Source: an uncultured Candidatus Saccharibacteria bacterium (GTDB lineage Bacteria; Patescibacteriota; Minisyncoccia; Phycocordibacterales; CAIRYW01). Taken from it: a stretch of DNA of 56,276 nt. Position 1 is the first letter of the stretch. The number at the start of each line of letters is the position of its first letter. Below are positions 7,559-49,131 of the stretch, in pieces. The translations under genes were made by a program, and so were the position numbers. Location of the stretch: contig CAYUPH010000006.1 in assembly GCA_964446625.1 (NCBI GenBank), forward strand, positions 1-56,276, in the 5' to 3' direction. A model generated the notes under the pieces. The model saw only the letters and a list, made by a program, of their open reading frames with translations, ran no database searches and had not been told where the DNA came from.

Positions 7559-7562
7559 AAGG

Positions 7563-29098: not shown

Positions 29099-29671
29099 TT
29101 ACAAGTGGCTTGCGGAGATACCCTTGTTGATGAGGGAAACAAGTTCTACCCTCTCTGCGCTAGGCAACTCTTTTTGGAGAGTACCACTTCCCATTTCTAA
29201 AACTGGTGTCGTGACAGCATTGATTGGAATGTACCCGAGCGCATAAAGAATTTGAAGCGAGAAAATAATTTCTGCATCTTTCTCTTTGTGTGGAGCAATA
29301 CCAGCGAGATTTTCAAACATACTTCGAATATATGCAAAAAGAAGATCGTTTTTTTCTTCTCCATGAACAAGACTTTGCAACAGTTTCGTAGACCTTAAAA
29401 AAACTTTGTACCCCGGTGTGCCGTATGGAAGCTCCTCTATTTCTTCTACTTCAAGAAGTCTCCACACTTCTCTTCCTTTTAGAAGCGTCACACTAAGAAG
29501 CGCGCCTTTCCGAAGCGCACCAGAGAGTTTTGCACCTTCTCGCCGTACACTTTTTGCAAGCACACGCAGAAACCCAAAACCTTCGCAAAAAAGTGAAAGC
29601 ATTTTATCATCCTCGCCTGTGTTTGCTTCAGCAATTAAAAAACAAAACGATGAGTACTTACTATGCGCCAT
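29099..29671 (-). CDS. recO: DNA repair protein RecO-like (short form)
   Basis: N-terminal OB-fold pattern GEDDKMLSLFCEGFGFLRVLAKSVRREGAKLSGALRKGALLSVTL. Overlaps ileS by 11 nt. No Zn-finger cysteines. Confidence 0.6.
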   Translation of the reverse strand: MAHSKYSSFCFLIAEANTGEDDKMLSLFCEGFGFLRVLAKSVRREGAKLSGALRKGALLSVTLLKGREVWRLLEVEEIEELPYGTPGYKVFLRSTKLLQSLVHGEEKNDLLFAYIRSMFENLAGIAPHKEKDAEIIFSLQILYALGYIPINAVTTPVLEMGSGTLQKELPSAERVELVSLINKGISASHL

Positions 29672-32600
29672 AAGGAGCTACTGAAACCGTAAACTCCATG
29701 TCACCAAGCTGAAGAGTTTTACCGTTTGTAGATGTGTACTTTGTTTCAAATGCACCAACAACTCGCGAGACGTCTTCCATAAGAGAAGCTTCGCTGAGGA
29801 GTTTTTTTCCTGCGTCGTTTGAAGAAAGGGTAAGTGTAATTTTTTGCTCTTGAATGAAACCTGCTTCTTTTCGCATATCCTGTATAAAACGGATAAGCTC
29901 CCTACCTGCTCCCTCAAGAATAAGTGACTCGGTTAAAGTAAAATCAAGTTCAATTTTTTCTTGGAGAGCACTTTCAACAATTACCTCTTTTACATTGATC
30001 TCATCTTTCAAAATCTCTTTTAATTCGTTTTCGAGATCTTTTCCAATTTTAATGCTTTGAAGAGGTTGTTTTACTTTTATATTTTCTTTATTTCTTTCCT
30101 GAAGAGCGAGAGACGCGAGACGTCTGACTTCTACCATGTCTGAAATAATAGTCTCGTTGTACTCCATGAGTTTCGGCCACTCTGCAAGGTGAACACTTTC
30201 CACCTTGTCTTCTGCTTCAATCTTTTGGTACAGATCCTCTGCGAAAAATGGAGCAAATGGAGCAAGTATCTTTGCAAAGTTTTGCAGAACAAATCCGAGT
30301 GTTGCCACAGCATCTTTGTTTCCTTCTCGAAGTGCTTCTCTTGATCGCCGTAGGTACCATGTCGACAAATCATCTATAAAGAGTCGCATTTCTCGCACAG
30401 GTTCGAGGATCTGGAACTTATCCATATGCTCGCTCACTTTCTTTTCAAGGAGAGACAGTCTACTTAAAATCCATACATCGAGAGAGCGTGTGCTTCGGTC
30501 ATGAATAGGAGCACTCTCCCCTTTGCTTTGCTCATAGAAAACATACACATTTGAAAGAATGTTAAAGAATTTTTTTCGTACCTCATCTACAGTTCGTTCG
30601 TCGAAGTTTTTACTTTCTCCTGGCTGATTGACACTATAAAGCCAAAGTCTAAGCGTATCGACTCCGTACTTATCAGCCATTTCCCACGGATCAATAACAT
30701 TTCCAAGAGACTTAGACATTTTCTTGCCATCTTTGTCGAGAAGGTGTCCAAGACAGATTACATTTTTATACGCCTTTCCTTTTCCAAGAAGGTTTGAGAC
30801 AGCGTGCAGAGTATAGAACCACCCACGCGTCTGATCAATCGCTTCGGAAATAAAATCTGCCGGAAAAGATTTTCCTGTATCAATTTCGTTTTTATTTTCA
30901 AAAGGATAATGATTTTGAGCAAACGGCATTGCACCAGAATCGAACCAAACATCCATCACTTCCTTTACCCTCTTTAGAGCTGTCCCTTTTTTTGAGACCA
31001 ATGTAATTTCATCGATATAAGGCTTGTGTAAATCAAGTTTAAAATCATCGTCATGCGGAAGAGGCACAAACGAAAGCGTTTCAAAACCGGCATACGGCAA
31101 ATAGTTTACCCCAGGAGTATAAATCACCTCAGTCGCTTTGTCGTCTGCTCCCGCTGCAACAACCTTAAGAAGTTTAGCTGGACCATCATGAGTCACAATG
31201 AGGATCGTTTTTCCTTCGTAAGTTTTTTCGAGATCATACAAAAACTCCCCCATTCTCTTTTTTGTTTCCCTGAGAGTTTCTCCACCTCCAACAGATTCGT
31301 TCAAGCGAAACTCAAAATTTGGAAAATACTTTGTAAAGTCACTTGCTTTAAAACCTGAAATATCTCCAAAGTCTTCTTCCCGGATGCGCTCGTCTATAAA
31401 TACTTTCTTATCAAGCGCTGCGGCAACAATCTCTGCAGTCTCCCGGGTCCTTTGGAGTGGCGAAGAAATAATAAGGTCAATATTTTCTGAAAGGAGTTTT
31501 GCTCCTGCGTTCTTTGCTTCTTCTTTTCCCTTTGCAGTGAGTGCATGTGCTTCTTCTGTATCGCTACTTAGTATTCCTTTTATATTATGCTCCGCCTCTG
31601 CGTGTCGCATAATTATGTATCTGTTTCCTGACTTTTTTGTAAAAGATTTTAGTTCTTCAATTGAAGACGGAATAAATCTTTCTTCACCATTTTCACTTTC
31701 CCACACAGGAAGAGGAGTTCCCCAGTATCTTTCTCTTGAGATTGCCCAATCTTTTATGTCGCGAAGCCATTCACCAAAACGCCCTTCTCGTATATACTCT
31801 GGCTCCCAACCAATTGTTTTGTTTTCTTCTACTAACGTGTCGCGAAGTGTCGAAACTCCAATGTACCAAGAATCTCTCGCAAAATAGATAAGAGGGGTTT
31901 TACATCTCCAGCAGTGCGGGTATGAGTGTTCGTATTTTTCTTTTTTAAAGAGGAGTCCCCTTCCTGCTAAATCTTTTATGACATCTACTGCAACTTCCTC
32001 GTCTTTTACAAAACGGTTTGCAAGAAATCCACACCACTCATAAAAAGTTCCGTCGTTTCTTACAGTGTGTTTCTTTGGTAAACCAATTTTGCTTCCGAGA
32101 ACAAAGTCATCCGCCCCATACATAACCGCGGTGTGCACAATTCCAGTTCCATCTGTTGTTGTCACAAAGTCAGCGGGGTAAACTTTAAAAGCTTTGGAAA
32201 TGTCCTCTCCATTTTTTGTAAGCTCATCTTTTAAGAATGGATAGAGGGGTTCGTAAGAAAGAGACAAGAGATTCTCACCTTTAAACTCTTTTCTTAATTC
32301 ATCTTTAGTAAATCCAAGTTTTTCAGAAAGTTCCAACGCAACGATGTGGTTCTTTCCTTCTTTTTCAAAAACACCATAGGAGATATTCTCTCCCACTGCA
32401 AGCGCGACGTTTCCTGGAAGTGTCCACGGTGTTGTTGTCCACGCGACTATATAACTTTCACTAGGAAGCTCGAGCGCTTCGGGATTTAAAATTTTAAAGC
32501 TGGCGTAAACAGATAAATCTTTTACATCTTCGTAGCCTTGAGCAAGCTCATGACTTGAAAGCGCAGTTCCACACCTTGGGCACCATGGCACAACTTTGTA

Positions 32601-33128
32601 ATCTTTGTAGAGCAGATTTTTATCATTGACAGTCTTTACAATATTCCATACTGATTCAATGTAGCTATTGTCGAATGTAAAGTATGCTTTTTCCAAATCT
32701 ACCCAATATCCAATTCTTTCTGTAAATTTTTTCCACAGATCAATGTACTGAAGAACGCTTGCTTTGCATTTCTTGTTAAACTCGGCAACACCGAACTCTT
32801 CAATTTCTTTTTTTGATTTGAGTCCAAGCTCTTTTTCTACTTGAAGCTCTACTGGAAGTCCGTGTGTATCCCACCCTGCTCGGCGCACCACTTTAAAGCC
32901 CTTCATTGTTTTGTATCGAGGAATCACATCTTTGAAGCTTCGAGCCTCTACGTGGTGAATTCCTGGCTTTCCGTTTGCAGTCGGTGGACCCTCAAAAAAC
33001 ACAAAATCACCCTGAGGTGCGTCCTTTTCCTCGGTTTTTTTAAATATGCCTTTCTCCTTCCAGAACCCAAGGACCCTTTCCTCCATGAGGGCTAAGTCAG
33101 ATTTTTGTGTTTCGTTGTTTTCGCTCAT
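29661..33128 (-). CDS. ileS: Isoleucine--tRNA ligase (type 2-like) carrying an inserted histidine-phosphatase domain
   Basis: PPTANGKPGIHHV (HIGH region), a CP1 editing domain (TTTPWTLPGN), WAISRERYWGTPLPVW, KMSKSLGN. The insertion is described separately. Confidence 0.95.
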   Translation of the reverse strand: MSENNETQKSDLALMEERVLGFWKEKGIFKKTEEKDAPQGDFVFFEGPPTANGKPGIHHVEARSFKDVIPRYKTMKGFKVVRRAGWDTHGLPVELQVEKELGLKSKKEIEEFGVAEFNKKCKASVLQYIDLWKKFTERIGYWVDLEKAYFTFDNSYIESVWNIVKTVNDKNLLYKDYKVVPWCPRCGTALSSHELAQGYEDVKDLSVYASFKILNPEALELPSESYIVAWTTTPWTLPGNVALAVGENISYGVFEKEGKNHIVALELSEKLGFTKDELRKEFKGENLLSLSYEPLYPFLKDELTKNGEDISKAFKVYPADFVTTTDGTGIVHTAVMYGADDFVLGSKIGLPKKHTVRNDGTFYEWCGFLANRFVKDEEVAVDVIKDLAGRGLLFKKEKYEHSYPHCWRCKTPLIYFARDSWYIGVSTLRDTLVEENKTIGWEPEYIREGRFGEWLRDIKDWAISRERYWGTPLPVWESENGEERFIPSSIEELKSFTKKSGNRYIIMRHAEAEHNIKGILSSDTEEAHALTAKGKEEAKNAGAKLLSENIDLIISSPLQRTRETAEIVAAALDKKVFIDERIREEDFGDISGFKASDFTKYFPNFEFRLNESVGGGETLRETKKRMGEFLYDLEKTYEGKTILIVTHDGPAKLLKVVAAGADDKATEVIYTPGVNYLPYAGFETLSFVPLPHDDDFKLDLHKPYIDEITLVSKKGTALKRVKEVMDVWFDSGAMPFAQNHYPFENKNEIDTGKSFPADFISEAIDQTRGWFYTLHAVSNLLGKGKAYKNVICLGHLLDKDGKKMSKSLGNVIDPWEMADKYGVDTLRLWLYSVNQPGESKNFDERTVDEVRKKFFNILSNVYVFYEQSKGESAPIHDRSTRSLDVWILSRLSLLEKKVSEHMDKFQILEPVREMRLFIDDLSTWYLRRSREALREGNKDAVATLGFVLQNFAKILAPFAPFFAEDLYQKIEAEDKVESVHLAEWPKLMEYNETIISDMVEVRRLASLALQERNKENIKVKQPLQSIKIGKDLENELKEILKDEINVKEVIVESALQEKIELDFTLTESLILEGAGRELIRFIQDMRKEAGFIQEQKITLTLSSNDAGKKLLSEASLMEDVSRVVGAFETKYTSTNGKTLQLGDMEFTVSVAPYGA
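31149..31622 (-). other. Histidine-phosphatase (PGAM/phosphoglycerate-mutase-like) domain inserted in IleRS (aa ~503-660)
   Basis: YIIMRHAEAEHN (RH catalytic pair, codons 31602-31607), SSPLQRTRETA, IREEDFGDISG and LIVTHDGP are in the canonical order. Confidence 0.8.
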
Positions 33129-34969: not shown

Positions 34970-36676
34970 TCACATCTCCTCCGGGATGTTAATTCCAAGG
35001 AGGAATAGTCCCTGCTCTAACACCCTTCCAAAAAGATGCGCTAGTGCAAGCCTGTGAGCTGTCTCTTTGTCATCTTTGTCTATAATTTTGTTGTGCGCGT
35101 AAAAGTTATTGAACTCACTTGTCAGACGAAGCAAATATTCCACCAAAAGATTTGGTGATTTTTCTTCAAATGCTCTGTGTGCCACAGCACCAAAACGACA
35201 CAGAAGCTTTTCTAAAAAGAGCACTTTCCTCTCTCCTCCTATGTATATTGGCACAATCCCCTCTGCTGCCGCTTTTTTTAAAAGAGAAGCTACTCGCACT
35301 CCTGCATACAGAAGGTATGGCCCCGAGTCACCGTCGAACGACATAGACTTTTCTCGATCAAAAACAATATCCTTTCCAGGCGATTGCCTTAGAATCGAAA
35401 ACTTTATTGCAGAAACCGCAATCTTTTCTGCCACTTCTTTTTTCTTTTCGGGGGTCATATCACGCTCTTCCATTTTCTTGAGCGCTTTTTCTTCCATCTC
35501 AAGGAGAAGTTCCTCACCTGTAATAATATTTCCTTTTCTCGAACTCATCTTCCCATCACTAAACCTAAGCATTCCATGGCCGATAAATTTTGTCTTCTTT
35601 GCTTCGTCTGGGTGAAGCAGGAACATTACCCGTCTGAGAACCTTAAAGTAGTCGCTAATCTCGTTAGCGGAAGTAATAACAGACAAATCAAACTTATGTC
35701 GCTCAGATTTTGTAAAAAAGAGTGCGAGTTCTTTTGCTTCATAGGTTGGAAGTCCCTCAGAGTTTAGAAAAACTCTTGTGTGAAGGCCAAAACGCTCACC
35801 CGGAAACACAACAGCACCCTCACTTTCTTCAAACAAAAACCCTAGGTTTTCTGTCACAATTTCCTTTGCCAAGTCCACAACTTCACTTTCAAAAATAAAC
35901 TCATCAAAACGTGTATCAAGTTTTTTGTAGATTTTGTCGAAGTAAAGAAGACTCCACTCTTTTCCCTTTTTGTAATACACCTCAAGATCCGCGTCACTTT
36001 TTTCAAAAAGCTTTTTATTTATCGCCCTAATTTCAGATTTTGCAGTTTCATCGTCTTCATACGCATGTGCTCCGACAACATACGCATCTCCCATAAACTT
36101 GATCTTGTCTGCAATACTGTCGTCGTCATGCGGAAAACCTGCGCGCGCTTTTTGCATTGCCCAAATTGTTTTTGCAACATGAAGCCCTATATCTCCTTGG
36201 TAACAAATTCTTTTTATGTGAGCACCTTGAAATTCGCAAAGCCGGCTTAGTGTCTCACCAACCGCATTTGCCATGAGGTGCCCAATATGAAAAGCCTTAA
36301 AAGGATTTGGGTCAGTGTACTCAAAAAGAGCAGTCTGCCCTTCCATACTATGTCCGCGTCCAGGAATCTTTTCTTTGTAGAGCTCTGCACACTCTGCTCT
36401 AAAATACTCGTCTTTTATATAAAAATTTAAGAAACCAGGTCCGGCTATTTCTACTTTTTCCAGTTCGGGAATAGCAGAAAAATCTAAGTTGTCTTTAATT
36501 TTCTCCGCAAATTCGTTTGCACCCATTCCAAACGCTCCGCAGTGTTTTAGAGCAACATTTGAAGTAAAGTCTCCATTTTTTATATTTTCTGGGTGTTCAA
36601 TATGTATTTCGGCCCCAGGAAGACTGAGCTTTTCTAAGGTAGAACCGATTACAGATTTTAGTTTACTGACTATCAT
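34970..36676 (-). CDS. argS: Arginine--tRNA ligase
   Basis: DPNPFKAFHIGHLMANAVGE (HIGH), MSSRKGN (a degenerate KMSK) and a C-terminal DALR-type anticodon-binding region. Confidence 0.93.
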   Translation of the reverse strand: MIVSKLKSVIGSTLEKLSLPGAEIHIEHPENIKNGDFTSNVALKHCGAFGMGANEFAEKIKDNLDFSAIPELEKVEIAGPGFLNFYIKDEYFRAECAELYKEKIPGRGHSMEGQTALFEYTDPNPFKAFHIGHLMANAVGETLSRLCEFQGAHIKRICYQGDIGLHVAKTIWAMQKARAGFPHDDDSIADKIKFMGDAYVVGAHAYEDDETAKSEIRAINKKLFEKSDADLEVYYKKGKEWSLLYFDKIYKKLDTRFDEFIFESEVVDLAKEIVTENLGFLFEESEGAVVFPGERFGLHTRVFLNSEGLPTYEAKELALFFTKSERHKFDLSVITSANEISDYFKVLRRVMFLLHPDEAKKTKFIGHGMLRFSDGKMSSRKGNIITGEELLLEMEEKALKKMEERDMTPEKKKEVAEKIAVSAIKFSILRQSPGKDIVFDREKSMSFDGDSGPYLLYAGVRVASLLKKAAAEGIVPIYIGGERKVLFLEKLLCRFGAVAHRAFEEKSPNLLVEYLLRLTSEFNNFYAHNKIIDKDDKETAHRLALAHLFGRVLEQGLFLLGINIPEEM

Positions 36677-37322
36677 TTTCTATATATGACCAAATCTTCT
36701 CATGAATTGTCTCGGGTGGCAAAACATTTGCCCCCTCCATACAATCCACTCTTTTCCAAAAGGCGTCTTTTTGAAGCATGAACTTTCCTGCTTCTTTTGA
36801 GTTTTTGAGGTATTCAAAATCCGAATCTGCGGCATCCTTAATTCCCTCTCGTTTTGAAATGAGTTCAATCGATGCTTCAAGCGTCATGTCCAAATAGAAA
36901 ACCACACTTGGCTTAAGTATGTGAAGCACATCGTATTCCATTTTTGAGAGCCATACAAGAAAATCTTCTCTCTCTTTTTCTGTGCGCAGTTTTCCTCCCT
37001 GGTGAATTTGGTTTGAAGTCACATACCTATCAAGTACCACCGTTTTCCCTTCTGCGAGCCACGTTTTTATTTTATCCATCGTTTCAAAGCGATCGCACGC
37101 ATACAAAACTGAAGCAATCTTTGGATCGGTTTTTATAAAATCCCCGTGCTTTCCATCCAGGCACTCACGAATGAGGGCTCCAAAAAGATTATCCTCGTAG
37201 CGAGGGAATCGCAAAGACTCCGAAGGAACCCCCTCTTTTTTAAGGCGCTGAAGAAGCAAATCTGTTTGAGTAGTCTTCCCTGACCCGTCACTTCCTTCGA
37301 TAACAATTAAATTTGCTTTCAT
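36663..37322 (-). CDS. tmk: Thymidylate (dTMP) kinase
   Basis: LIVIEGSDGSGKTTQ (P-loop) and DRYVTSNQIHQ. Overlaps argS by 14 nt. Confidence 0.92.
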   Translation of the reverse strand: MKANLIVIEGSDGSGKTTQTDLLLQRLKKEGVPSESLRFPRYEDNLFGALIRECLDGKHGDFIKTDPKIASVLYACDRFETMDKIKTWLAEGKTVVLDRYVTSNQIHQGGKLRTEKEREDFLVWLSKMEYDVLHILKPSVVFYLDMTLEASIELISKREGIKDAADSDFEYLKNSKEAGKFMLQKDAFWKRVDCMEGANVLPPETIHEKIWSYIENDSQ

Positions 37323-37326
37323 TTTT

Positions 37327-38475
37327 CTACTTGTTCTTTATCCGAGGTGGCCTCTTAATTCCTAAAGCGTACTTAGTTTCTCCTGCATCACTTCCCCTTG
37401 GTTTTAAAGTATTAACAAACATCGGTCGAGAAAGTTTGTCATAGACCTCTTTTGATACTGTAGATCGAGGGAGAGGTGAAGGTGTGAAAAAGGCATGCGT
37501 AAATCTCTTGAAAAAAGATGGCTTCTTATGTTTTACATTTTCATACACTCTTTCTACTGCATCCCTTAGACCAGCAGTATTTGTAACAGATTGAATTAGA
37601 TACTCACCTTTCCCATTTGCAGTATCAAAAATTCCTTCGATCATATCGAGCAAATCATTCCTTCTAAAAAGTTGCTTACTTCCTTGAAGTCCGTGCTCAA
37701 GTGCAGGCGCATACAGTATTACAGCTTCAAGATCTTGGCGGGTCTTCGCCATTTGAAGCCTATACTTAAAATCATTCCATTCCTCTTCTGTTGAACCCTC
37801 TCTCTTTTCAATTTCTTCTGCACTCACAGTGTCTTTATACAAAGAACCGTCTGACATTTCATACTCTCGAGTTGCAGTTGCAATGTCTTCTTGTAGCACT
37901 ATTGCTTTATTTTCTATCTCCAAAAGCTTTGTCACCTTTTCCCTCAACCCCTCAGCTATTGGAAGTGCATCAATACCATAGCGGTGACTAAACACGCCGC
38001 GGACAAGTTCTTGCACTTTTTCTTTTGAGTATGTTCCCGAATCAGAAGCCAAACCATTAAAACTTTCTGACTCAATAAATGCAAACAAATCTTTTTTGTT
38101 TGCAATTTTTGTAAATAAACCATCTTCTTTCTCTGGTATACCTTCTGGTTTTCCCATTTGCGCAAGAAAAGCTTCCCTATCTGCCTCAACTCTTTTGCAC
38201 CACTCCACTTTCGCACGAATTTTTTTTGCAGCCACACTATCCGTCGGCAAAGCTTCAATACCCTTTACCCTGTTATAGACTGACGCTAAATATTCCTCTG
38301 CCGCCTTCTGGTCTGCTTCGGTTTTTATCTCATCAAATAGCGTTAGTAAAAACCATGCATCAATAGAAGCATTTCCCATTCCATCTCTCATTTTATATAC
38401 CACAATAAAATTTTCCGACAACCCCTCGAGTGGGTCTTTTTTCTCTGGTAAAGGTGTACTAAAAATTTCTCCCAT
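37327..38475 (-). CDS. Hypothetical 382-aa protein with three internal repeats and a basic C-terminus
   Basis: The recurring module appears as VYNRVKGIEALPTDSVAAKKIRAKV, VFSHRYGIDALPIAEGLREKV and IFDTANGKGEYLIQSVTNTAGLRDAV. It is packed between glyA and tmk (gaps of 1 and 4 nt). Confidence 0.65.
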   Translation of the reverse strand: MGEIFSTPLPEKKDPLEGLSENFIVVYKMRDGMGNASIDAWFLLTLFDEIKTEADQKAAEEYLASVYNRVKGIEALPTDSVAAKKIRAKVEWCKRVEADREAFLAQMGKPEGIPEKEDGLFTKIANKKDLFAFIESESFNGLASDSGTYSKEKVQELVRGVFSHRYGIDALPIAEGLREKVTKLLEIENKAIVLQEDIATATREYEMSDGSLYKDTVSAEEIEKREGSTEEEWNDFKYRLQMAKTRQDLEAVILYAPALEHGLQGSKQLFRRNDLLDMIEGIFDTANGKGEYLIQSVTNTAGLRDAVERVYENVKHKKPSFFKRFTHAFFTPSPLPRSTVSKEVYDKLSRPMFVNTLKPRGSDAGETKYALGIKRPPRIKNK

Positions 38476-38476
38476 A

Positions 38477-39649
38477 CTATCTTGAAATAATATCTATAAT
38501 TCTCTCTGCGATTTTTTGGAAATCTTTTTCTTTCTTTCCGCGAGTTGTTTCTGCGGCAGTTCCAAACCTAATTCCAGAAGGATCAAATGGTGAGCGAGTT
38601 TCTCCAGGAATTGTGTTTACGTTTGCAATGATTCCTGCTTTTTCAAGACGGTCAACCACTTCTTTTGCAGGAACTCCTTTTCCACCCTGCCACACATCAA
38701 CCAAAATCATGTGACTGTCAGTTCCTCCTGAAACAACTCGTATACCACCTTTTTGTAGTGCCTTCGAAAATGCTTTTGCGTTTTTGATAATCTGCTTTGC
38801 GTACTTTTTGAAGTCTGCCCTGCCCGCCTCTTCGAGTGCAACTGCAATTCCTGCAATCTGACTTTCGTGGGGACCACCTTGAAGTCCTGGAAAAACTGCT
38901 TTATCAATTTTTTTGTTAAGTTCTCTGTCGTCTCTTCGAGAAAAAATCATTGCACCTCTTGGTCCTCGCAATGTCTTGTGTGTAGTTGTTGTTACTACAT
39001 CTACAAAAGGAAATGGACTGGGATACGCTTTCCCAGCAACAAGACCTGCTAAGTGCGACATATCAGCCATAAGAATTGCGCCTGTTGCGTCTGCAATTTC
39101 TCTAAACTTTTTCCAATCAACCAATCGCGGGTACGCAGTAAACCCGCAGACAATGAGCGCTGGTTTTTCCTTTAGCGCTTTTTTCTTTAGTTCCTCATAA
39201 TCGAGAACTTCAGTTTTTGAATCAACTTCAAACGGTACACTTTCCCAAAACTTTCCTGTAATTGAAACTTTCTGTCCATGTGAAAGATGTCCTCCTGAAG
39301 AAAGTGTCATACCCATAATTTTTTCCCCTTTTGGAACAAGCCCCAGGTAAACCGCCAAATTTGCGTTTGCACCAGAGAGCGGTTGTACATTGACTGCCCA
39401 CTCTTTTTCTTTGACTCCAAACGCTTTGAGCGCCCGATTTTGACAGAGTGTCTCAAGCTCATCGACAAACACATTTCCTTTGTAGTAGCGCGCTCCTGGG
39501 TAACCTTCTGCGTATTTATTATCAAACACCGAACCTAGTGCTTGAAGCACCTCCTTTGAACAGTAGTTCTCTGATGCAATGAGGTTAATAACTTTCTTTT
39601 GTCTCGCCTCTTCTTTTTTTATAAGCTCAAAAATTTTTTTATCGTTCAT
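38477..39649 (-). CDS. glyA: Serine hydroxymethyltransferase
   Basis: LIASENY, GYPGARYY, VTTTTHKTLRGPRGA (PLP-binding Lys). Confidence 0.96.
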   Translation of the reverse strand: MNDKKIFELIKKEEARQKKVINLIASENYCSKEVLQALGSVFDNKYAEGYPGARYYKGNVFVDELETLCQNRALKAFGVKEKEWAVNVQPLSGANANLAVYLGLVPKGEKIMGMTLSSGGHLSHGQKVSITGKFWESVPFEVDSKTEVLDYEELKKKALKEKPALIVCGFTAYPRLVDWKKFREIADATGAILMADMSHLAGLVAGKAYPSPFPFVDVVTTTTHKTLRGPRGAMIFSRRDDRELNKKIDKAVFPGLQGGPHESQIAGIAVALEEAGRADFKKYAKQIIKNAKAFSKALQKGGIRVVSGGTDSHMILVDVWQGGKGVPAKEVVDRLEKAGIIANVNTIPGETRSPFDPSGIRFGTAAETTRGKKEKDFQKIAERIIDIISR

Positions 39650-39660: not shown

Positions 39661-39685
39661 TAAGAATTAAGATTTAGGAATTAAG
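39661..39685. repeat. IR-family arm (left arm flanking the four-helix-bundle gene)
   Basis: taagaattaagatttaggaattaag is 24/25 identical to the reverse complement of 44484-44508. Confidence 0.85.
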
Positions 39686-40050
39686 AATGATTTTGTTTTA
39701 CTAATTAGTCCTTGTAAAAGTTTGTGCGTTTGCTTAATTTGTTCTTCTATTTTTTGAGAATCAGCTACACCCATTAATTTTACATCTCTTGCTATGAAAA
39801 GCTGGTTGGTTAATTCAATTAGTGATCCTTGTGCAATGTAATTAAATTGAAGCTTTTCTTTATAACCTTGTCTTCCGAACCCTTCAGCAATGTTTGAGGT
39901 TATCGAAACCGCTGACCGATTCATCTGACTTGCGAGACCAAAAAGTTCTTCCTTCGGAAACTTTTTTGTCATTTGATAAATCAATATCACTAACTTGTGT
40001 CCTTCTTGCCACGCAATTAGATCAGTGAATTGTTTTATCTTTTTTTCCAT
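39667..40050 (-). CDS. Four-helix-bundle protein (23S rRNA intervening-sequence protein family, TIGR02436-like)
   Basis: FTDLIAWQEGHKLVILIYQMTKKFPKEELFGLASQMNRSAVSITSNIAEGFGRQ...QGSLIELTNQL. The ATG at 40048-40050 is preferred over the longer track ORF. Confidence 0.85.
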   Translation of the reverse strand: MEKKIKQFTDLIAWQEGHKLVILIYQMTKKFPKEELFGLASQMNRSAVSITSNIAEGFGRQGYKEKLQFNYIAQGSLIELTNQLFIARDVKLMGVADSQKIEEQIKQTHKLLQGLISKTKSFLIPKS

Positions 40051-40051
40051 T

Positions 40052-40082
40052 CTTAAATCATAATTCTTAAAACTTAATTCTT
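40052..40082. repeat. IR-family arm (right arm flanking the four-helix-bundle gene)
   Basis: The reverse complement aagaattaagttttaagaatta matches the left-arm core aagaattaagatttaggaatta at 20 of 22 positions. Confidence 0.75.
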
Positions 40083-40583
40083 GTATATTCGCTCGCTTCC
40101 TTCTAAAAGATATACATTTATTATACCAGCAGCAATCATTGAATCCCAACATGGCTTACAGCACCACCAGTGGCCATGAAGGTAGAGGTCAGCACCCTTT
40201 ACCGCTTCGGCGCCATGTTTTGAGACCGCTTCCCTTATAGCTGATCTTTCGGCGTGATTCTTGTTTGTGACACAACCAGGGCAAAGCCAGTATTTTTGCC
40301 CACTTTTTACTTTAAAAAACTTGCGGACACAGACTCCGGCCGCATGTAGCTTTACAAACGGTTTGTATGAAAAAACTGAATGATTTGCTCCCCTGCCTAT
40401 TATTTTCCCGTCTTTTACCACCACAGCACCTGTTGGGTGGTTTAAATCGGTACTCATTTCACGCCAGGCTTTTTCCGCTTCAATCATAAAGGGGTTTTCC
40501 TGGGGAACATAAAGTATTGACCTCCCCTCTGGCATGTATGGATATATAATTTTTGTTGAATCCTCTCCCATGAGTAGTATCAT
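40074..40583 (-). CDS. dCMP deaminase (ComEB/CDA zinc-deaminase fold)
   Basis: TGAVVVKDGKIIGRGAN, HAERSAI (H-A-E zinc motif), CKPCWDSM (PCxxC-like). Alternative start at MPEGR (40535). Confidence 0.85.
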   Translation of the reverse strand: MILLMGEDSTKIIYPYMPEGRSILYVPQENPFMIEAEKAWREMSTDLNHPTGAVVVKDGKIIGRGANHSVFSYKPFVKLHAAGVCVRKFFKVKSGQKYWLCPGCVTNKNHAERSAIREAVSKHGAEAVKGADLYLHGHWWCCKPCWDSMIAAGIINVYLLEGSERIYKN

Positions 40584-40590
40584 ATATGGT

Positions 40591-41460
40591 ATGACGAAGT
40601 TTGACCAGATATACCAAGATATTCTAAAACGGATTCTAAAAGAAGGGATTGAGGAAACTTCTTCACTTCAAAAAGTGAAAACAAAATCCCTCCCTGGTGT
40701 TCACTTTCAAATTGATTTGGAAAAAGACGGCTTCCCTCTCCTCACAATTCGAAAGATTCCTGTAAAAATGTTTACAGCGGAACAAATTTGGTTTCTCTCT
40801 GGAGCACGAAAGCCCGACGATTTTCTCCGGGACTATACAAAAGTATGGGACGCATTTACTAACCCAAACGATGTTGTCACCGTTGCTTACGGGTTTAGAT
40901 GGCGAAAATATTTTGGACGAGATCAAATACAGTCTCTTGTTGAACTCCTTCAAAAAGAGCCTCTTAGTAGACACGGTGTTGTTATTGCCTGGGATCCAGG
41001 AAGCGACGGGCTTTCACTCATTAAAAAAGCAAACGTTCCTTGTCCCTTTTCTTTTGTAGTAAACATAATCGGCGGACGACTCAATATGCATAACATAGTA
41101 CGCTCAAACGACATGTATCTTGGCGCACCTGCTGACATAGCAGGCTTTGCACTCCTTCAGACAATTCTGGCGCAAAAGTTAAAAGTTAAAGTCGGAGTGT
41201 ATAGTCACTCGATTTCAAACGCGCATATTTACGAGAACCAGTTTTCTGCCGCAAAAGAATTAGTTGCTCGAAAAAACAATCACAAAAAAATTACCATCTC
41301 TCTTCCAAAGAATGCTTTTGACCGGGCGGAAAAGAAAGACAAAAAACTTCTTGAGGAAATAGTAAAGGAGTTTGAAAAGCAGTACAAACCTATGGAGAAC
41401 ATAAAGGGGGTGAAAATTGTGACATGGAATGACCAAATAAAAAAACAAAAAAGAAAATAA
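40591..41460 (+). CDS. Divergent thymidylate-synthase (ThyA) family enzyme with Asp at the pyrimidine-specificity position; substrate uncertain
   Basis: TAEQIWFLSG, AYGFRWR, SRHGVVIAW, catalytic VPCPF (Cys codon 41041-41043), VRSNDMYLGAPADIAGF (Asp codon 41134-41136) and SNAHIYENQ. Start set at MTKFDQIY; the track ORF starts at 40534. Confidence 0.8.
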   Translation: MTKFDQIYQDILKRILKEGIEETSSLQKVKTKSLPGVHFQIDLEKDGFPLLTIRKIPVKMFTAEQIWFLSGARKPDDFLRDYTKVWDAFTNPNDVVTVAYGFRWRKYFGRDQIQSLVELLQKEPLSRHGVVIAWDPGSDGLSLIKKANVPCPFSFVVNIIGGRLNMHNIVRSNDMYLGAPADIAGFALLQTILAQKLKVKVGVYSHSISNAHIYENQFSAAKELVARKNNHKKITISLPKNAFDRAEKKDKKLLEEIVKEFEKQYKPMENIKGVKIVTWNDQIKKQKRK

Positions 41461-41461: not shown

Positions 41462-42130
41462 ATGGCAATCCTAACAAAAACAAAAATATTAGAGCGAGTA
41501 ACAAAAGGCGAAATTGTATTTAAGCCAAACCTTGATGAGTTTCAAATCCAAGCCCACGCAATAGATATGCGCCTTGGGTATACATTTCTCATACCAAAGC
41601 AGTGGCACCTTACGGATAAAGGAAGAGAGGCGCTTCGAATCGACCATCTAGACAAGAATCGAAAAGACTATTTTGAAGTGATTGAACTCGAAGAGAGACA
41701 GTTTTTTGAGCTTCTCCCTGGAGAGTATGTTCTCGCATCTACTCTAGAGAGTGTCAAAGTTCCAGACGACCTAATGGCGGTTCTCTACCCTCGTAGTTCA
41801 ACGAATCGAAAAGGGCTTTCGGTAGATTTAACAGGAATTGTAGACTCAGGATACGAAGGACAACTTGTTATTCCAATTCGAAACAACACTAACTCTCAGG
41901 TGGTGAAACTCTACCCTGGGGAGAGGTTTTGTCAGATTGTTTTTGAGGCGCTCGATGAAGCTGTAATTGCAGAGAAATCTCGATACCACCAAAAAGATAT
42001 TGTAGAGGGTTTCATTATGACAAAGGAGAACAAACAGAAAAGAGACTCTGAAGAGATAAGCTATGTATCAGAAGGAAGAATCCGAGAATTAAAAAAAGAG
42101 AAGTCTGCACACCATGGAGATAAAGTTTAA
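41462..42130 (+). CDS. dcd: dCTP deaminase family protein (Dcd), with a charged C-terminal extension
   Basis: AIDMRLG, YPRSSTNRKGLSV, IVDSGYEGQLVIPIRNN, GERFCQIVF. Confidence 0.85.
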   Translation: MAILTKTKILERVTKGEIVFKPNLDEFQIQAHAIDMRLGYTFLIPKQWHLTDKGREALRIDHLDKNRKDYFEVIELEERQFFELLPGEYVLASTLESVKVPDDLMAVLYPRSSTNRKGLSVDLTGIVDSGYEGQLVIPIRNNTNSQVVKLYPGERFCQIVFEALDEAVIAEKSRYHQKDIVEGFIMTKENKQKRDSEEISYVSEGRIRELKKEKSAHHGDKV

Positions 42131-42542
42131 AAAACTTGACCCTCGAGCGACAGCTCCTCAAAAAGGTTACCCAGACGATGCAGCCTTCGATCTCTTTGCT
42201 CTCAACGAGACTGTGGTTGAAGCAAAAAGTTCTGCTTGGATAAAAACAGGAATTGCTTTCGAGATTCCCGAAGGGTATGCGGGGCTCATTTGGGACAAAA
42301 GTAGTGTTGCGCACAAGTGGAACATTACAAAAATCGGTGGAGTTTTTGATGCTGGCTACAGAGGGGACATCACTATCGGCCTCCACAACCTCTCAAACGA
42401 AAGTCACACTTTTAAATCGGGAGATAAAATTGCTCAAATTATCTTCGCTCCCACTCCCCTTTTTGAACTAAAAGAGTCCGATACACTTTCTGAATCAGTT
42501 CGAGGTGAAAAGAGGTTTGGGAGTAGTGGACTTCGAATTTAA
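42114..42542 (+). CDS. dut: dUTP diphosphatase (trimeric dUTPase)
   Basis: DAAFDLFA, DKSSVAHKWNI, GVFDAGYRGDITIGLHNLS, KIAQIIF, RGEKRFGSSG. Overlaps dcd by 17 nt. Confidence 0.9.
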   Translation: MEIKFKKLDPRATAPQKGYPDDAAFDLFALNETVVEAKSSAWIKTGIAFEIPEGYAGLIWDKSSVAHKWNITKIGGVFDAGYRGDITIGLHNLSNESHTFKSGDKIAQIIFAPTPLFELKESDTLSESVRGEKRFGSSGLRI

Positions 42543-42569: not shown

Positions 42570-43073
42570 ATGAAAGTTTTTATAATCGCAGCACAAACAA
42601 TAGACGGGTTCATTGCAAAAGACAGTAGCCACCCTGCTTTTTGGACTAGCAAAGAAGACAAAAAAAGATTTGTTGAGCTTACTTCACACGCAGGAGTTTG
42701 CGTCATGGGACACGCAACATTCAAAACCCTTCCTCGTCCTCTTAAAGAAAGACTAAACATTGTTTACACACGAAGCGCGGAAACATTTGAAGGCGCGGAG
42801 ACAACATCCGATGATCCAATAACACTTATACAAAAACTAGAAGACCGTGGTTTCAAGGAAGTTGCAATCTGTGGAGGCTCAACAATTTACAGTCTTTTTC
42901 TAAAAGCAGGAGTCGTTGATACTATCTATCTTACAATCGAGCCTATTGTTTTTGGTGAAGGAGTTTCTCTTTTTAACACTCCGTTTAATACCCAATTCGA
43001 ACTTGTAAGTCATGAAAAAACAGAAGGTGGTGCACTTCTTCTCGAGTATCGAGTAAAAAATAAATTGATATAA
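42570..43073 (+). CDS. Dihydrofolate-reductase-fold protein (DHFR / RibD C-terminal family)
   Basis: MKVFIIAAQTIDGFIA, VMGHATFKTLPRPLKERLNIVYTR, AICGGSTIYSLFL. Confidence 0.75.
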   Translation: MKVFIIAAQTIDGFIAKDSSHPAFWTSKEDKKRFVELTSHAGVCVMGHATFKTLPRPLKERLNIVYTRSAETFEGAETTSDDPITLIQKLEDRGFKEVAICGGSTIYSLFLKAGVVDTIYLTIEPIVFGEGVSLFNTPFNTQFELVSHEKTEGGALLLEYRVKNKLI

Positions 43074-43085: not shown

Positions 43086-43751
43086 TTACTTTGCATGGCG
43101 ATTGAAAAAATAGGCAACCTCCCTCGCAAGATTAATTTCGAAAGTTGAGGCAAGCGAAATTAACCTTTCAAGAAAATCGCCCATCTCTTCCACGATCTTC
43201 TTTTCCTCGGAGTTTCGTAAGAACTCAATCGTCCACTCATCACCTTCCTCGGAAAGATGGAGTGCGCGGATAAGTTTTGCTTCGAAACTCCTATCGTTAG
43301 GGTAAACCCTCCAGTCCGACGCCTGGAATGCACCAAACGACTGCTTTAGCTTGGGTGGATGGTTTCCCTTCATCCGAAAGAGCGGCCTAGGAACACCCGG
43401 ATTTGTGCATGTGCAAGGACAATCTCCACAATACACACACTTCCCAGGGTACCCCTTCGTTATTACTTCCTGCACACAAATCTTTCGACTCGAGGCAAAA
43501 AACACAAGCATCAAAAACGCTTGAACAATTCGCTCAACAGGAATCTCTTCCTGCTTACGAACTTGCCTAACGATTTTTTTCTTGTGCTCTATTAGCTCTG
43601 CGAGCCACTTGTCTCGCTCAAGAGCTTTCTCAGGAAATATAAGATCAGGAAATTTTTCTTTTCTACTTTCAGTAGCCTCTTGGAGCTGCCGAAAGGTATA
43701 CGCCCCATTTGTTGGGAGTTTCATGTTTTCTGCCCTAAAACTACTCCCCAC
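43086..43751 (-). CDS. Tandem MazG-like (all-alpha NTP pyrophosphohydrolase-like) protein with a central Cys cluster
   Basis: Two helical halves carry acidic motifs: LAELIEHKK...EEIPVERIVQAFLMLVFFA and LSEEGDEWTIEF...EEMGDFLERLISLA. They are separated by GKCVYCGDCPCTCTNPG. The likely start is MKLPTNG (43724). Confidence 0.5.
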   Translation of the reverse strand: MGSSFRAENMKLPTNGAYTFRQLQEATESRKEKFPDLIFPEKALERDKWLAELIEHKKKIVRQVRKQEEIPVERIVQAFLMLVFFASSRKICVQEVITKGYPGKCVYCGDCPCTCTNPGVPRPLFRMKGNHPPKLKQSFGAFQASDWRVYPNDRSFEAKLIRALHLSEEGDEWTIEFLRNSEEKKIVEEMGDFLERLISLASTFEINLAREVAYFFNRHAK

Positions 43752-46319: not shown

Positions 46320-47222
46320 CTACATTCGGCCGCTTTTTTGGTCTTTGTATGCTTTAAAAAGGTTCTCAAAAAGAGAGGCGACCGTCATGGGGCCAATACC
46401 ACCTGGAACTGGAGAGATTTTACTTACCACTTTGCTAACTGTCGCAAAATCGACATCCCCAACTAATTTTATTTTTGGATTTTCCTCTAATTCTTTTTTT
46501 CCTTTTTCAGCGTTTGTTCCTACATCAACAACAACTTGGTTTTTTGAAAAATACTTTTTATCAAAAAACTTTGCCTTTCCAACAGAGACAATGACTACAT
46601 CGGCTGTTTTTGTGAGTTTCTCAAGGTCTTCTGTTTTACTATGCGCAACTGTCACAGTTGCATTCTCTTTGAGAAGGAGCATTGCAACAGGTTTTCCTAC
46701 AAGAAGCGAGCGCCCAATGACAACCACCTTTTTTCCTGAAAGAGCGACTTTGTAATGCTTAAGAAGAGTAATAATACCTCGCGCTGTTGCAGGAATAAGC
46801 CCCGCAGGAACGGTTCTTGGATCACTTCCGCCAAATGCGCTTTCGTAGAGGAGTCCTGCGTTTCTTGAGTGTAGTCCATCAACATCTTTTCGTGGGTCAA
46901 TTTCTTCTATAACAGCAAAGCGGTCAACGTGTTTTGGGAGTGGAAGTTGAACAATAATTCCGTGTACAGAAAAATCTAGGTTAAGGTCACGGATTTCTGC
47001 AATGATTTCTTTTTGTGTCGCTTCTTCGGGAAGAGTGATTCGCCTTACTTCTGCGCCAACTTGTTTTCCAAAAGACACCTTTCGCTCAATATACGCACTC
47101 GACTCTTTCTTGTCCCCCACCTGAATAATCGCAAGGGTTGGCGCACCAAGCTCCTTCGCTTCCTGCGTTAGTTTTTTTGCAATCTTTTGTGAAACTAATT
47201 TTCCGTCGAGAATTTCTGCCAT
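46320..47222 (-). CDS. folD: Bifunctional 5,10-methylene-THF dehydrogenase/cyclohydrolase
   Basis: ILDGKLVSQKI, LAIIQVGD, HGIIVQLPLP, DVDG, VVVIGRSLLVGKP, PVPGGIGPMTVA. TGCTAAAGT lies 6 nt upstream of the ATG. Confidence 0.95.
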   Translation of the reverse strand: MAEILDGKLVSQKIAKKLTQEAKELGAPTLAIIQVGDKKESSAYIERKVSFGKQVGAEVRRITLPEEATQKEIIAEIRDLNLDFSVHGIIVQLPLPKHVDRFAVIEEIDPRKDVDGLHSRNAGLLYESAFGGSDPRTVPAGLIPATARGIITLLKHYKVALSGKKVVVIGRSLLVGKPVAMLLLKENATVTVAHSKTEDLEKLTKTADVVIVSVGKAKFFDKKYFSKNQVVVDVGTNAEKGKKELEENPKIKLVGDVDFATVSKVVSKISPVPGGIGPMTVASLFENLFKAYKDQKSGRM

Positions 47223-47721: not shown

Positions 47722-49131
47722 ATGCAAGAGGACAAAAAAACAGAAGTAAAGAGGTGGATAAGGGTAAGTGGAGCGGAGTATAAGGACGGCGAAGTACTCT
47801 ACTTTGCGACGCGCGAAATGCGCATAGAAGATAACCCTTCTCTTCTTTTTGCAGAAAGTTTTGCAAAAGAAAAGAAAACTGCGTTCGCAGTATCATACAA
47901 TCTTGAAACTGGTTTTCTTGGTGGCTCGTACCGAAGCCATGCATTTAAAGTAAAGGGACTAAAAGAATTTTCAGAAAACCTGGAGAAAAAAAATATTCCC
48001 TTCTTTCTTTTTTCTGGAGAAAAGACAATTGAAAGTGTTGTAGATTTTATAGAGGCTCACAAAATCGGCGCGCTTGTAACAGACTTCTGTCCCCTTTCCT
48101 CTCACAAAGCATGGCTTCGACACCTTAGACAAAAGCTATCAATTCCCATCTTTATTGTTGATTCTCACAATATCGTCCCCACTTGGGTTTCAAGCCAAAA
48201 ACAAGAATACGGCGCATATACCCTCCGGCCAAAAATCACAAAACTCCTCCCTTCTTTTTTAAAGGAACTTCCTCCTCTCAAAAAACAGACCGCACTCTTT
48301 AGTGTAAAACCCAAAGAAATAAATTGGGAAAATATGCTAAGTGACTTTCCAGACAAAAGTACTCCAGAAAGTACGGATTTTCTCCCGGGCGAAAAGGAAG
48401 CAAAAAAAGTCTTATCTAGATTTTTGGAAGACAAAATTCGAGGCTATGCAGAAAAAAGAAATGATCCGCTTCAGGACTTTCAGTCGAACCTTTCTCCTTA
48501 CCTCCACTACGGACAAATTAGTGCGCTCCGTATCGCTCTTGAAGCTTTGAAAATTTTAAATCTACCTTTTGAAAAAGTTTTTCATCCTCTTAAAAATGCC
48601 GCCTCTTCGAAAACTGAACATGTATCTGCCTTCCTTGAAGAACTAATTGTGCGCAGAGAACTCGCAGACAACTTTTGCTTCTACAATGAAAAATATGATT
48701 CTTTCGATGGTTTTCCCGACTGGGCAAAAAATAGCCTCACTGACGCTAAAGGAGACGAGAGAGAGTTTGTGTATACAAAAAAAGAATTTGAGGAGGCAAA
48801 AACACACGACAACCTCTGGAACGCCTGCCAAAGAGAAATGGTCCTTACAGGCAAAATGCATGGCTATATGCGAATGTACTGGGCAAAGAAAATCCTAGAG
48901 TGGACCAAATCACCCGAAGAAGCTCTTAAAATTGCTATTTACTTAAACGATAAATACGAACTAGACGGCAGAGACCCAAATGGCTACGCAGGAATTGCAT
49001 GGAGTATTGGAGGTGTGCACGACAGAGCATGGTTTCCCCGAAAAGTTTTCGGCCTTGTAAGGTACATGGCGCGAAGCGGCTGTGACAAAAAGTTTGATAC
49101 AAAAGCCTACATAAAAAAGTGGGTCAAATAA
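47722..49131 (+). CDS. phr: Deoxyribodipyrimidine photolyase, class II
   Basis: GKMHGYMRMYWAKKILEW, LNDKYELDGRDPNGYAGIAWSIGGVHDRAW, RYMARSGCDKKF. Confidence 0.92.
   Translation: MQEDKKTEVKRWIRVSGAEYKDGEVLYFATREMRIEDNPSLLFAESFAKEKKTAFAVSYNLETGFLGGSYRSHAFKVKGLKEFSENLEKKNIPFFLFSGEKTIESVVDFIEAHKIGALVTDFCPLSSHKAWLRHLRQKLSIPIFIVDSHNIVPTWVSSQKQEYGAYTLRPKITKLLPSFLKELPPLKKQTALFSVKPKEINWENMLSDFPDKSTPESTDFLPGEKEAKKVLSRFLEDKIRGYAEKRNDPLQDFQSNLSPYLHYGQISALRIALEALKILNLPFEKVFHPLKNAASSKTEHVSAFLEELIVRRELADNFCFYNEKYDSFDGFPDWAKNSLTDAKGDEREFVYTKKEFEEAKTHDNLWNACQREMVLTGKMHGYMRMYWAKKILEWTKSPEEALKIAIYLNDKYELDGRDPNGYAGIAWSIGGVHDRAWFPRKVFGLVRYMARSGCDKKFDTKAYIKKWVK

Follow-up and report, generated by a model that had tools for sequence, protein, structure and literature searches.

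A thymidylate synthase homolog of Paceibacteria predicted to methylate dCMP in a housekeeping nucleotide operon

A 56,276-nucleotide stretch of DNA from a bacterium of the candidate phyla radiation (CPR), contig CAYUPH010000006.1, which we call the window, carries at positions 40591 to 41460 a gene for a homolog of thymidylate synthase (TS). Judging by sequence comparison, this protein is probably a housekeeping C5-methyltransferase of deoxycytidine monophosphate (dCMP) in Paceibacteria, an enzyme of the kind found in phage Xp12, and it would work in a route that leads from dCTP through dCMP, 5-methyl-dCMP, and thymidylate (dTMP) to dTDP. We infer all substrates and products, the order of the steps, and the status of this route as the main source of dTMP. 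To our knowledge, two enzyme families, ThyA and ThyX, are thought to cover all cellular de novo thymidylate synthesis, and both methylate deoxyuridine monophosphate (dUMP). The gene and its two key codons lie as follows; residue numbers 58 to 209 of TS homologs are given in Escherichia coli ThyA numbering.

Positions 40591 to 41460, plus strand: TS-fold protein of the Asp177/Asn143/Pro147 type, predicted dCMP C5-methyltransferase (PF00303 match, residue mapping, clade, and structure model).

Positions 41041 to 41043, plus strand: nucleophile codon TGT, encoding Cys151 (E. coli Cys146) in the motif NVPCP (translation and alignment).

Positions 41134 to 41136, plus strand: pyrimidine-specificity codon GAC, encoding Asp182 (E. 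coli Asn177) (HMMER alignment and homolog counts).

The open reading frame (ORF) encodes 289 amino acids, identical to the sequence quoted in an earlier note on this DNA. Its start at 40591 is backed by an identical 289-residue database protein and by the N termini of homologs, which read M(T/A)xFD; on the same grounds, a longer ORF from 40534 was set aside as unsupported. The Pfam profile Thymidylat_synt (PF00303) matches with an E value of 2.7e-51 over profile positions 2 to 251 of 266, and an AlphaFold2 (AF2) model (predicted local distance difference test score [pLDDT], 90.7) has the full TS fold, with template modeling (TM) scores of 0.76 to 0.84 to solved TS structures. Ten residues of E. 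coli ThyA are kept (Glu58, Trp80, Tyr94, Arg126, Cys146, Arg166, Ser167, Asp169, His207, and Tyr209), as the earlier note had said of the core catalytic elements, Cys146 and Glu58 among them. Of these, Cys146, Glu58, Tyr94, Arg166, Asp169, and His207/Tyr209 are invariant across the homologs.

The same note had read by eye an Asp in place of the Asn that specifies uracil. In the HMMER alignment with solved TS structures, the query segment RSNDMYLGAPADIAGF aligns on RSADIFLGVPFNIASY, which places Asp in the column of Asn177 of E. coli, or Asn229 of Lactobacillus casei. A MAFFT alignment with E. coli ThyA puts Asp in column 177 in the same register. The reading by eye was therefore right: profile and structure alignments show Asp, not Asn, at the specificity position, and translation together with both alignments also agrees on the GAC codon and on the Cys codon at 41041 to 41043. 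Among the PDB entries that match the protein best in sequence is 1njc, the N229D structure.

We examined how far this residue extends among relatives. Homolog counts below refer to the 120 nearest homologs of the protein concerned; genomes were scanned as one per GTDB species, and locus counts refer to the best 80 of 301 matching genomes, with flanks of up to 10 kb compared. A TS relative occurs in at least 301 species-level genomes, and the best 80 all belong to Patescibacteria. The homologs come from Parcubacteria/Paceibacteria of the CPR (Kaiser-, Taylor-, Adler-, Nomura-, and Colwellbacteria and Minisyncoccia). Asp177 is present in 120/120 homologs and 80/80 genomes, and so is Asp169. Asn143, where canonical enzymes have Leu, likewise occurs in all 120; Phe83 is found in 119, Asn168 in 118, and Pro147 (canonical His) in 117 of them, while residue 127, canonically Arg, is His or Gln in Paceibacteria-type TS. 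Two further signs named in the earlier note did not prove diagnostic. The loss of the N-terminal DRTGTGT motif is real in the window protein, which has Leu in the Arg21 column, but 100 of the 120 family members keep Arg21; on these sequences, its loss is a quirk of one sub-clade and not a family trait. The RSND tetrad had been taken as a clue to phage T4 gp42, yet Xp12-type enzymes read RSSD.

A wider survey, of 1.8 billion representatives of clusters at 50% identity, revealed two co-varying states. The canonical state comprises Trp83, Arg127, Leu143, His147, Phe176, and Asn177; the other, which we call D-type, comprises Phe83, Asn143, Pro147 (though other residues also occur there), and Asp177. 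Representatives with Leu143/His147 carry Asn177 almost without exception. In a neighbor-joining (NJ) phylogeny, bootstrapped on 54 taxa with 100 replicates, the Asn143/Asp177 clade was split from canonical TS in 90/100 replicates. The D-type clade contains three groups: the Paceibacteria proteins, which form a separate sub-clade; proteins of phage-like contigs; and a large group with Xp12, PaMx74, and their relatives. Hence the view that the enzyme is of the dCMP rather than the dUMP type gains comparative support from an Asn143/Pro147/Asp177 clade that includes Xp12.

Direct comparisons point the same way. The best phage-database matches of the window TS are Xp12-like and PaMx74-like enzymes (E values of 1e-40 to 1e-45), and classical phage td genes reach only about 1e-26; against Xp12 TS itself, identity is 32% (E = 6e-49). 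Phe83, Asn143, Pro147, and Asp177 are common to the window TS and those of Xp12, PaMx74, Donnerlittchen, and RcSimone, and the NVPCP motif, a DGL insertion, and a loop deletion before a shared GRDQ motif are the same as in the Xp12 and PaMx74 enzymes.

The chemistry of such enzymes is known in part. PMC8670742 cites Hardy and Nalivaika (1992) and Liu and Santi (1992) for the finding that Asn177Asp or Asn229Asp makes TS a dCMP methylase, and PMC13326640 also describes Asn-to-Asp at 177 as the switch to dCMP. In viral metagenomes, TS positions 177 and 147 best separate modified-cytosine contigs from others (PMC8670742). In the DNA of Xp12, 5-methylcytosine replaces cytosine. The TS homolog of this phage makes 5-methyl-dC in E. 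coli, as do 5/7 deaminase-linked metagenomic Asp177 homologs expressed there, and the deaminase beside the Xp12-type TS has been proposed to use the methylated pool as a source of thymidine nucleotides (bioRxiv 10.1101/2024.12.05.627091). Earlier work, as cited in PMC12088426, likewise has Xp12 thymidylate arising from deaminated methylated dC nucleotides, and dCMP deaminases accept 5-methyl-dCMP (PMC12088426).

The TS homolog is the only TS gene of its nucleotide operon, and no second TS was found among the other large ORFs of the window. On the plus strand it is followed by genes for a protein resembling dCTP deaminase (DCD), for Dut, and for dihydrofolate reductase (DHFR); the minus strand bears tmk, a gene of unknown function, glyA, a small four-helix-bundle gene, and a deaminase gene. 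The core of serine hydroxymethyltransferase (SHMT), Tmk, and deaminase, then TS, DCD-like protein, and DHFR, is also present in two distant genera (loci L004 and L007). The partners of the TS gene are as follows.

Positions 36663 to 37322, minus strand: Tmk, converting dTMP to dTDP (Pfam Thymidylate_kin, E = 1e-23).

Positions 38477 to 39649, minus strand: SHMT (glyA), regenerating methylenetetrahydrofolate (CH2-THF) (ORF; PF00464 at the equivalent place in L004 and L007).

Positions 40074 to 40583, minus strand: mononucleotide deaminase of the cytidine deaminase (CDA) fold, lineage-specific, predicted to convert 5-methyl-dCMP to dTMP (Pfam dCMP_cyt_deam_1, E = 4.7e-15; synteny).

Positions 41462 to 42130, plus strand: DCD-like protein of the trimeric-dUTPase superfamily, 222 amino acids, predicted dNTP diphosphatase (Glu-to-Pro alignment; synteny).

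Positions 42114 to 42542, plus strand: conventional dUTPase (Dut), overlapping the DCD-like gene by 17 nucleotides (TIGR00576, 112 bits, above the cutoff).

Positions 42570 to 43073, plus strand: DHFR, recycling the expected dihydrofolate (DHF) (Pfam DHFR_1, E = 2.8e-18).

Methylation is not the only reaction that a TS relative with Asp at the specificity position could carry out, and the earlier note had left the product as either a methyl or a hydroxymethyl nucleotide. A hydroxymethylase acting on dCMP or CMP, like T4 gp42 or MilA, would make 5-hydroxymethyl-(d)CMP for DNA modification or for a secondary metabolite, and Asp at the specificity position, the resemblance of RSND to gp42, and the fusion of a related Asp177 homolog to a LOG/SLOG domain would suit it. 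An acidic residue at 143 goes with hydroxymethylation, and Asn169 with 5-hydroxylation (PMC13326640); hydroxymethylases lack the C-terminal tail of TS, release tetrahydrofolate (THF), and do not need DHFR (PMC6400193; PMC5175136). The window TS has Asn at 143, as in Xp12, and neither Asp nor Glu, keeps Asp169, and ends in a folate-closing tail (IKGxxI..) that aligns with IKAPVAI of E. coli. DHFR is syntenic in many Paceibacteria and in the cassettes of Xp12, PaMx74, and the metagenomic contig L104, though hydroxymethylation yields THF and needs none. In the structure-match ranking of the AF2 model, gp42-type hydroxymethylases stand far below TS, and no glycosyltransferase, N-glycosidase, or biosynthetic genes were seen nearby in the window.

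On Asn143 and the C-terminal tail we rejected the hydroxymethylase, which we regard as highly improbable. A 5-hydroxy-dCMP synthase of the RB69/DLP3 type was rejected as well, as it requires Asn169 where the window TS has Asp169. Methyl is thus favored over hydroxymethyl because the tail is present, DHFR is syntenic, residue 143 is not acidic, Asp169 is kept, and the fold is TS-like, and reductive methylation of dCMP is the chemistry best supported by sequence and model. Of the two products proposed earlier, it is the methyl nucleotide that is favored, together with the remark that the adjacent DHFR-fold gene fits a reductive reaction.

The putative acceptor of the methylated product is encoded divergently from the TS gene in 77 of the 80 genomes; the three exceptions lie at contig edges. 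Its zinc motifs, HAE and PCxxC, are intact in the window deaminase and across the 80-genome set. The family is specific to Paceibacteria, with 514 matches under the generic name "deaminase," and the window member scores 25 bits against a cutoff of 219 for the ComEB model TIGR02571. The allosteric motif G(Y/W)N(A/G) of DCTD, defined in PMC12088426, is missing; the window deaminase reads GANH and the family consensus GANQ. The closest folds to its AF2 model (pLDDT, 84) are mononucleotide dCMP/dCTP deaminases, with TM scores of about 0.45 to 0.5. A PDB sequence search with the deaminase returned no dCMP deaminase, only RibD, guanine deaminase, and TadA at E values above 1e-4, and so gave no hint of the substrate. 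BLASTP against the dCMP deaminase of Xp12 was insignificant (E = 0.04); therefore, the two are not orthologs. In one phage-like contig, the gene just downstream of a D-type TS codes for a deaminase that shares 39% identity with that of the window (E = 9e-31).

The deaminase and TS genes, on opposite strands, begin 7 nucleotides from each other (40583 to 40591); the distances in L007 and L004 are 36 to 87 nucleotides. With a spacing of 7 nucleotides, both promoters must lie inside the coding region of the partner, or the transcripts are leaderless. The spacing of the start codons implies that expression of the two genes is tightly coupled.

The DCD-like protein passes the cutoff of TIGR02274. 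Alignments with solved DCDs and with E. coli Dcd set its segment LVIPIRN on IVLEFYN of Dcd, so that Pro occupies the position of Glu138; this Pro is present in 120/120 homologs and in 75/75 readable loci. Ser111, Arg115, and the hydrolytic Asp128 are invariant, and the phosphate-binding Arg-Ser-Ser is kept in the family. Glu138 is essential for catalysis by E. coli dCTP deaminase, as reported by Johansson et al. (2005); the E138A structures 1XS4 and 1XS6 are among the entries in the comparison of DCD structures. As the catalytic Glu is Pro in all members, the DCD-like protein is not expected to deaminate. Instead, we predict a diphosphatase that converts dCTP to dCMP, cleans up 5-methyl-dCTP or dUTP, or does both.

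This bears on a tension raised in the earlier note, that the flanking dcd and dut genes would produce dUMP, the substrate of a classical TS. The tension is largely dissolved, because the "dcd" gene product lacks the catalytic Glu (Pro in 120/120) and probably feeds no dUMP; the cluster then has no need to supply dUMP to the TS homolog.

The DCD-like family is labeled "dCTP deaminase" everywhere, and its genes always accompany an Asp177 TS; it is probably a misannotated dNTP diphosphatase. Glu-less copies lie at L004:10850-11491, L007:9674-10309, L011:11335-11973 (minus strand), and L106:6131-6616 (minus strand). In the last two, which are phage-like contigs, the Glu-less variant adjoins a D-type TS, and in Xp12-type cassettes the equivalent slot is held by a MazG/HAD pyrophosphohydrolase. 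As a control, an IMG/VR scan with an alignment that E. coli Dcd headed gave only ordinary viral DCDs; the seven taken as controls retain Glu, and none has a TS in its vicinity. An IMG/VR scan with an alignment of the Paceibacteria DCD-like proteins only gave no matches.

The trio of Asp177 TS, deaminase, and Glu-less DCD-like protein recurs in phage-like contigs, and deaminases lie near 4/4 other Asp177 TS relatives examined. Three proteins have an Asp177 TS fused to another domain: P0135 (L011:10001-11302, in a phage-like contig) to a deaminase, P0203 to a MazG/PRA-PH pyrophosphohydrolase, and P0244 to the LOG/SLOG domain mentioned above. They are Rosetta-stone evidence for three different upstream or downstream partners of Asp177 TS. 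The nearest non-CPR relatives of all three proteins of the trio are in phage-like contigs, which suggests that phages and CPR bacteria exchanged the module long ago. Contig L104 (JGI 3300072492), at 6001 to 7854, has genes for an Asp177 TS, DHFR, and Vsr (the T:G mismatch endonuclease) in succession beside PolA; this gene set is what would be expected for a virus with 5-methylcytosine DNA.

Such parallels raise the question whether the Paceibacteria themselves have 5-methylcytosine DNA. In that case, 5-methyl-dCMP would be phosphorylated by Tmk or another kinase, 5-methylcytosine would replace much or all of the cytosine, the deaminase would divert only a share of the pool to thymidine, and the DCD-like protein would be a dCTPase that keeps dCTP out of DNA. 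The gene kit parallels that of Xp12 and PaMx74 part for part (pyrophosphatase, Asp177 TS, deaminase, and DHFR), the nearest non-CPR relatives sit in phage-like contigs, one of them with Vsr, and the substitution would be invisible to short-read metagenomics. If this were true, these would be the first cellular organisms with a wholesale-substituted base. We consider it improbable: the argument is purely one of analogy, nothing in the window suggests the handling of 5-methylcytosine DNA, the cluster is built around the use of dTMP (Tmk and SHMT), and the cell would need dCTP-independent replication and repair, of which the searched literature holds no report. The earlier note had named both fates of the modified nucleotide, incorporation into DNA and deamination to dTMP. 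The deaminase bypass is the one that we favor over modified DNA, because the deaminase is adjacent in 77/80 genomes, is fused to an Asp177 TS in P0135, and shares the cluster with SHMT and Tmk.

The setting of the cluster is a housekeeping one. FtsK, RecA, several aminoacyl-tRNA synthetases, L11, NusG, SecE, and tRNAs are encoded in the window, and this housekeeping gene content indicates a cellular genome. The cluster is flanked by ArgRS, IleRS, L11, NusG, and SecE, and the GC content is flat at about 0.40 across the locus. A prophage or a recent transfer was considered and rejected on that flat GC content (about 0.40) and on housekeeping flanks that are syntenic across genera. The DCD-like gene follows the TS gene in about 77 of the 80 genomes; most of these loci have SHMT, Tmk and DHFR occur often, and in L004 and L007 Tmk lies directly beside the deaminase. 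Dut is found in some genomes but not in others, and its position varies; the window Dut fits ordinary sanitation of dUTP.

Several other features of the region were recorded. Between glyA and the deaminase gene, at 39667 to 40152 (minus strand), lies the four-helix-bundle gene, annotated as a "23S rRNA intervening-sequence protein" (Pfam E = 5.7e-35); its ORF overlaps the 3' end of the deaminase gene by 79 nucleotides, the real start is probably an internal Met, and the gene is absent from this place in L004 and L007. Between tmk and glyA, 37327 to 38475 (minus strand) encodes a 382-residue protein with a sub-threshold Fez1 match only; in L004, a comparable place is taken by a DUF2914 protein. 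Right after DHFR, 43086 to 43751 (minus strand) is an ORF of 221 residues with a Cys-rich CVYCGDCPCTC segment and no Pfam match. Elsewhere, the slot after DHFR is taken by an F420-ligase-like/ATP-grasp pair, possibly for folate polyglutamylation, or by FolB. The IleRS gene at 29661 to 33128 (minus strand) encodes 1,155 residues, and its catalytic domain is interrupted midway by a histidine-phosphatase (His_Phos_1) domain, an arrangement conserved in another Paceibacteria genus (L004:883-4365). Just past the L11-NusG-SecE block, FolD (methylene-THF dehydrogenase/cyclohydrolase; 46320 to 47222, minus strand; 3 kb away) and a photolyase-family gene (47722 to 49131, plus strand) extend the folate theme of the region. 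Many metagenome-assembled genomes with the cluster (L012 to L091) are labeled "uncultured Candidatus Saccharibacteria"; their proteins are 65 to 83% identical to those of Paceibacteria, and the label is probably a blanket error of the submitting pipeline.

A more conventional explanation has to be weighed against dCMP methylation. The protein could be a classical dUMP TS that tolerates Asp177, or one that takes both substrates; the deaminase would then be a dCMP deaminase making dUMP, as in the ComEB and ThyA route of Gram-positive bacteria, and the DCD-like protein and Dut would be dUTPases that add to the supply of dUMP. The full TS fold, with all covalent-catalysis and folate-binding residues kept, would agree with this, and so would a housekeeping operon with Dut, DHFR, SHMT, and Tmk and a literature that treats thyA (COG0207) as a near-core gene of Parcubacteria. 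DCD-fold proteins that are plain dUTPases also exist, and the DCD-like protein weakly matches the archaeal dUTPase model NF002598. Of the bacterial NCBIfam TS equivalogs, TIGR03284 is passed (125.7 against a cutoff of 108.35); the other four (NF002497, NF002496, NF002495, and NF002499) are not, with scores of 116 to 144 against cutoffs of 325 to 405. We nevertheless think a classical TS unlikely. Asp177 is invariant and co-varies with Asn143, Pro147, and Phe83, as in a clade whose tested members methylate dCMP; the Asn-to-Asp change found here is the classic dCMP switch; and sequences with the canonical signature almost never carry Asp177. Moreover, dUMP as the substrate gives no reason for the DCD homolog to have lost its Glu in every genome, and the recurrence of the trio in phage modules of the 5-methylcytosine type would be unexpected.

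A number of observations count against an Xp12-type dCMP methyltransferase, the TIGR03284 score just given among them. The gene is annotated as TS everywhere in databases. The window TS is only 31 to 34% identical to Xp12-type enzymes, and the proven D-type enzymes all lie outside the Paceibacteria sub-clade. Residue 168 is Asn in Paceibacteria TS and Ser in Xp12, residue 176 is Ala, Ser, or Thr in place of Tyr, and the C-terminal tail is longer and of the canonical type, unlike that of Xp12. In its model, the window deaminase is very divergent, given its TM scores of only about 0.45 to 0.5 to dCMP deaminases, and mSCD-B5, the sole partner deaminase characterized from phages, takes the triphosphate rather than the monophosphate as its substrate (bioRxiv 10.1101/2024.12.05.627091). 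We infer the diphosphatase role of the DCD-like protein from one lost residue and synteny. Finally, the genuine Dut of the operon means that dUMP is made.

If the enzyme is nonetheless a dCMP methyltransferase, the route may be reconstructed in five steps. The Glu-less DCD-like protein would hydrolyze dCTP to dCMP and pyrophosphate, with salvaged DNA as an alternative or additional source of dCMP, and it may also sanitize 5-methyl-dCTP or dUTP. In the second step, the TS homolog would attack with Cys151 as the nucleophile while Asp182 protonates and recognizes N3/N4 of cytosine; the methylene group of CH2-THF would be transferred to C5 and reduced by hydride, giving 5-methyl-dCMP and DHF. The divergent deaminase would then convert 5-methyl-dCMP to dTMP, and Tmk would phosphorylate dTMP to dTDP. 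DHFR and SHMT, with FolD nearby, would close the folate cycle. The classical steps of deamination, hydrolysis, and methylation would thus be reordered, so that dUMP is no obligatory intermediate.

Neither a TS that methylates dCMP in cells or in CPR bacteria nor a bacterial route from 5-methyl-dCMP to dTMP turned up in our literature searches. CPR papers treat the gene as an ordinary thyA, and a published table of the Parcubacteria core has thyA, not thyX. The chemistry and the pairing of TS and deaminase are already known from Xp12-type phages. What appears to be new, as far as the sequences tell, is that an entire bacterial class has the module fixed as its housekeeping means of making thymidylate. 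The TS sub-clade, which is distinct, the sub-family of deaminases, and the Glu-less partner of the DCD fold also appear to be new. If the reading is true, a very large and abundant lineage of ultra-small CPR bacteria makes dTMP by a third route, in which cytosine is methylated first and deaminated after, and puts to housekeeping use a module that is known elsewhere only in phages that incorporate 5-methylcytosine into their DNA. It would be a natural way to thymidylate that bypasses dUMP and dUTP. The metabolism reconstructed for CPR bacteria would then have to be revised, with "thyA," "dcd," and "dCMP deaminase" functionally misannotated, and it would be indicated that phages and CPR bacteria exchanged modules of nucleotide metabolism in ancient times. 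A family of 5-methyl-dC-nucleotide deaminases and a Glu-less DCD-fold pyrophosphatase would also be of biotechnological interest.

Among known systems, the closest is the cassette of the Xp12 dCMP C5-methyltransferase (EC 2.1.1.54), which comprises a pyrophosphohydrolase, the TS homolog, a deaminase of the dCMP family, and DHFR; PaMx74-like Pseudomonas phages have the same set. Like the Xp12 enzyme, the window TS belongs to the D-type clade and is linked to a CDA-fold deaminase, a predicted dNTP pyrophosphatase, and DHFR. The pyrophosphatase slot is filled by a Glu-less DCD homolog in Paceibacteria and by MazG/HAD proteins in Xp12, and the deaminases belong to different sub-families. The settings also differ, a class-wide cellular housekeeping operon with SHMT and Tmk in one case and a phage DNA-modification cassette in the other.

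Canonical ThyA (EC 2.1.1.45; E. coli and L. casei) shares with the window TS its fold (TM score of about 0.8), a dimer-type architecture, the catalytic residues, the C-terminal tail, and the linkage to DHFR, with DHF as the expected product. In contrast, the window TS has Asp177, Pro147, Asn143, Phe83, and His/Gln127 and falls outside the canonical clade. The engineered enzymes, E. coli N177D and L. casei N229D, follow the same logic of a one-residue switch from uracil to cytosine; whereas these are laboratory mutants in a canonical background, the Asp of the window TS is natural, ancient, and accompanied by compensating changes at 83, 143, and 147. T4 gp42 and MilA share Asp at the specificity position and the use of cytosine nucleotides, which is predicted here, but have an acidic residue at 143, no TS C-terminal tail, and THF as the product; none of these applies to the window protein, in the case of THF by prediction.

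The partners can be compared in the same way. Like the window deaminase, the phage deaminases selective for 5-methylcytosine, mSCD-B5 and the 5-methyl-dCTP deaminase of Xp12, are encoded beside an Asp177 TS, and it has been proposed that they turn methylated dC nucleotides into T nucleotides; mSCD-B5 requires a triphosphate, whereas the Paceibacteria deaminase belongs to a separate sub-family with a Cys-rich insertion and without the DCTD allosteric motif. The DCD-like protein keeps Ser111, Arg115, and the hydrolytic Asp128 of Dcd and of bifunctional Dcd:Dut, and it differs from Dcd in the change of Glu138 to Pro in 120/120 homologs and in a one-residue deletion at 124/125.

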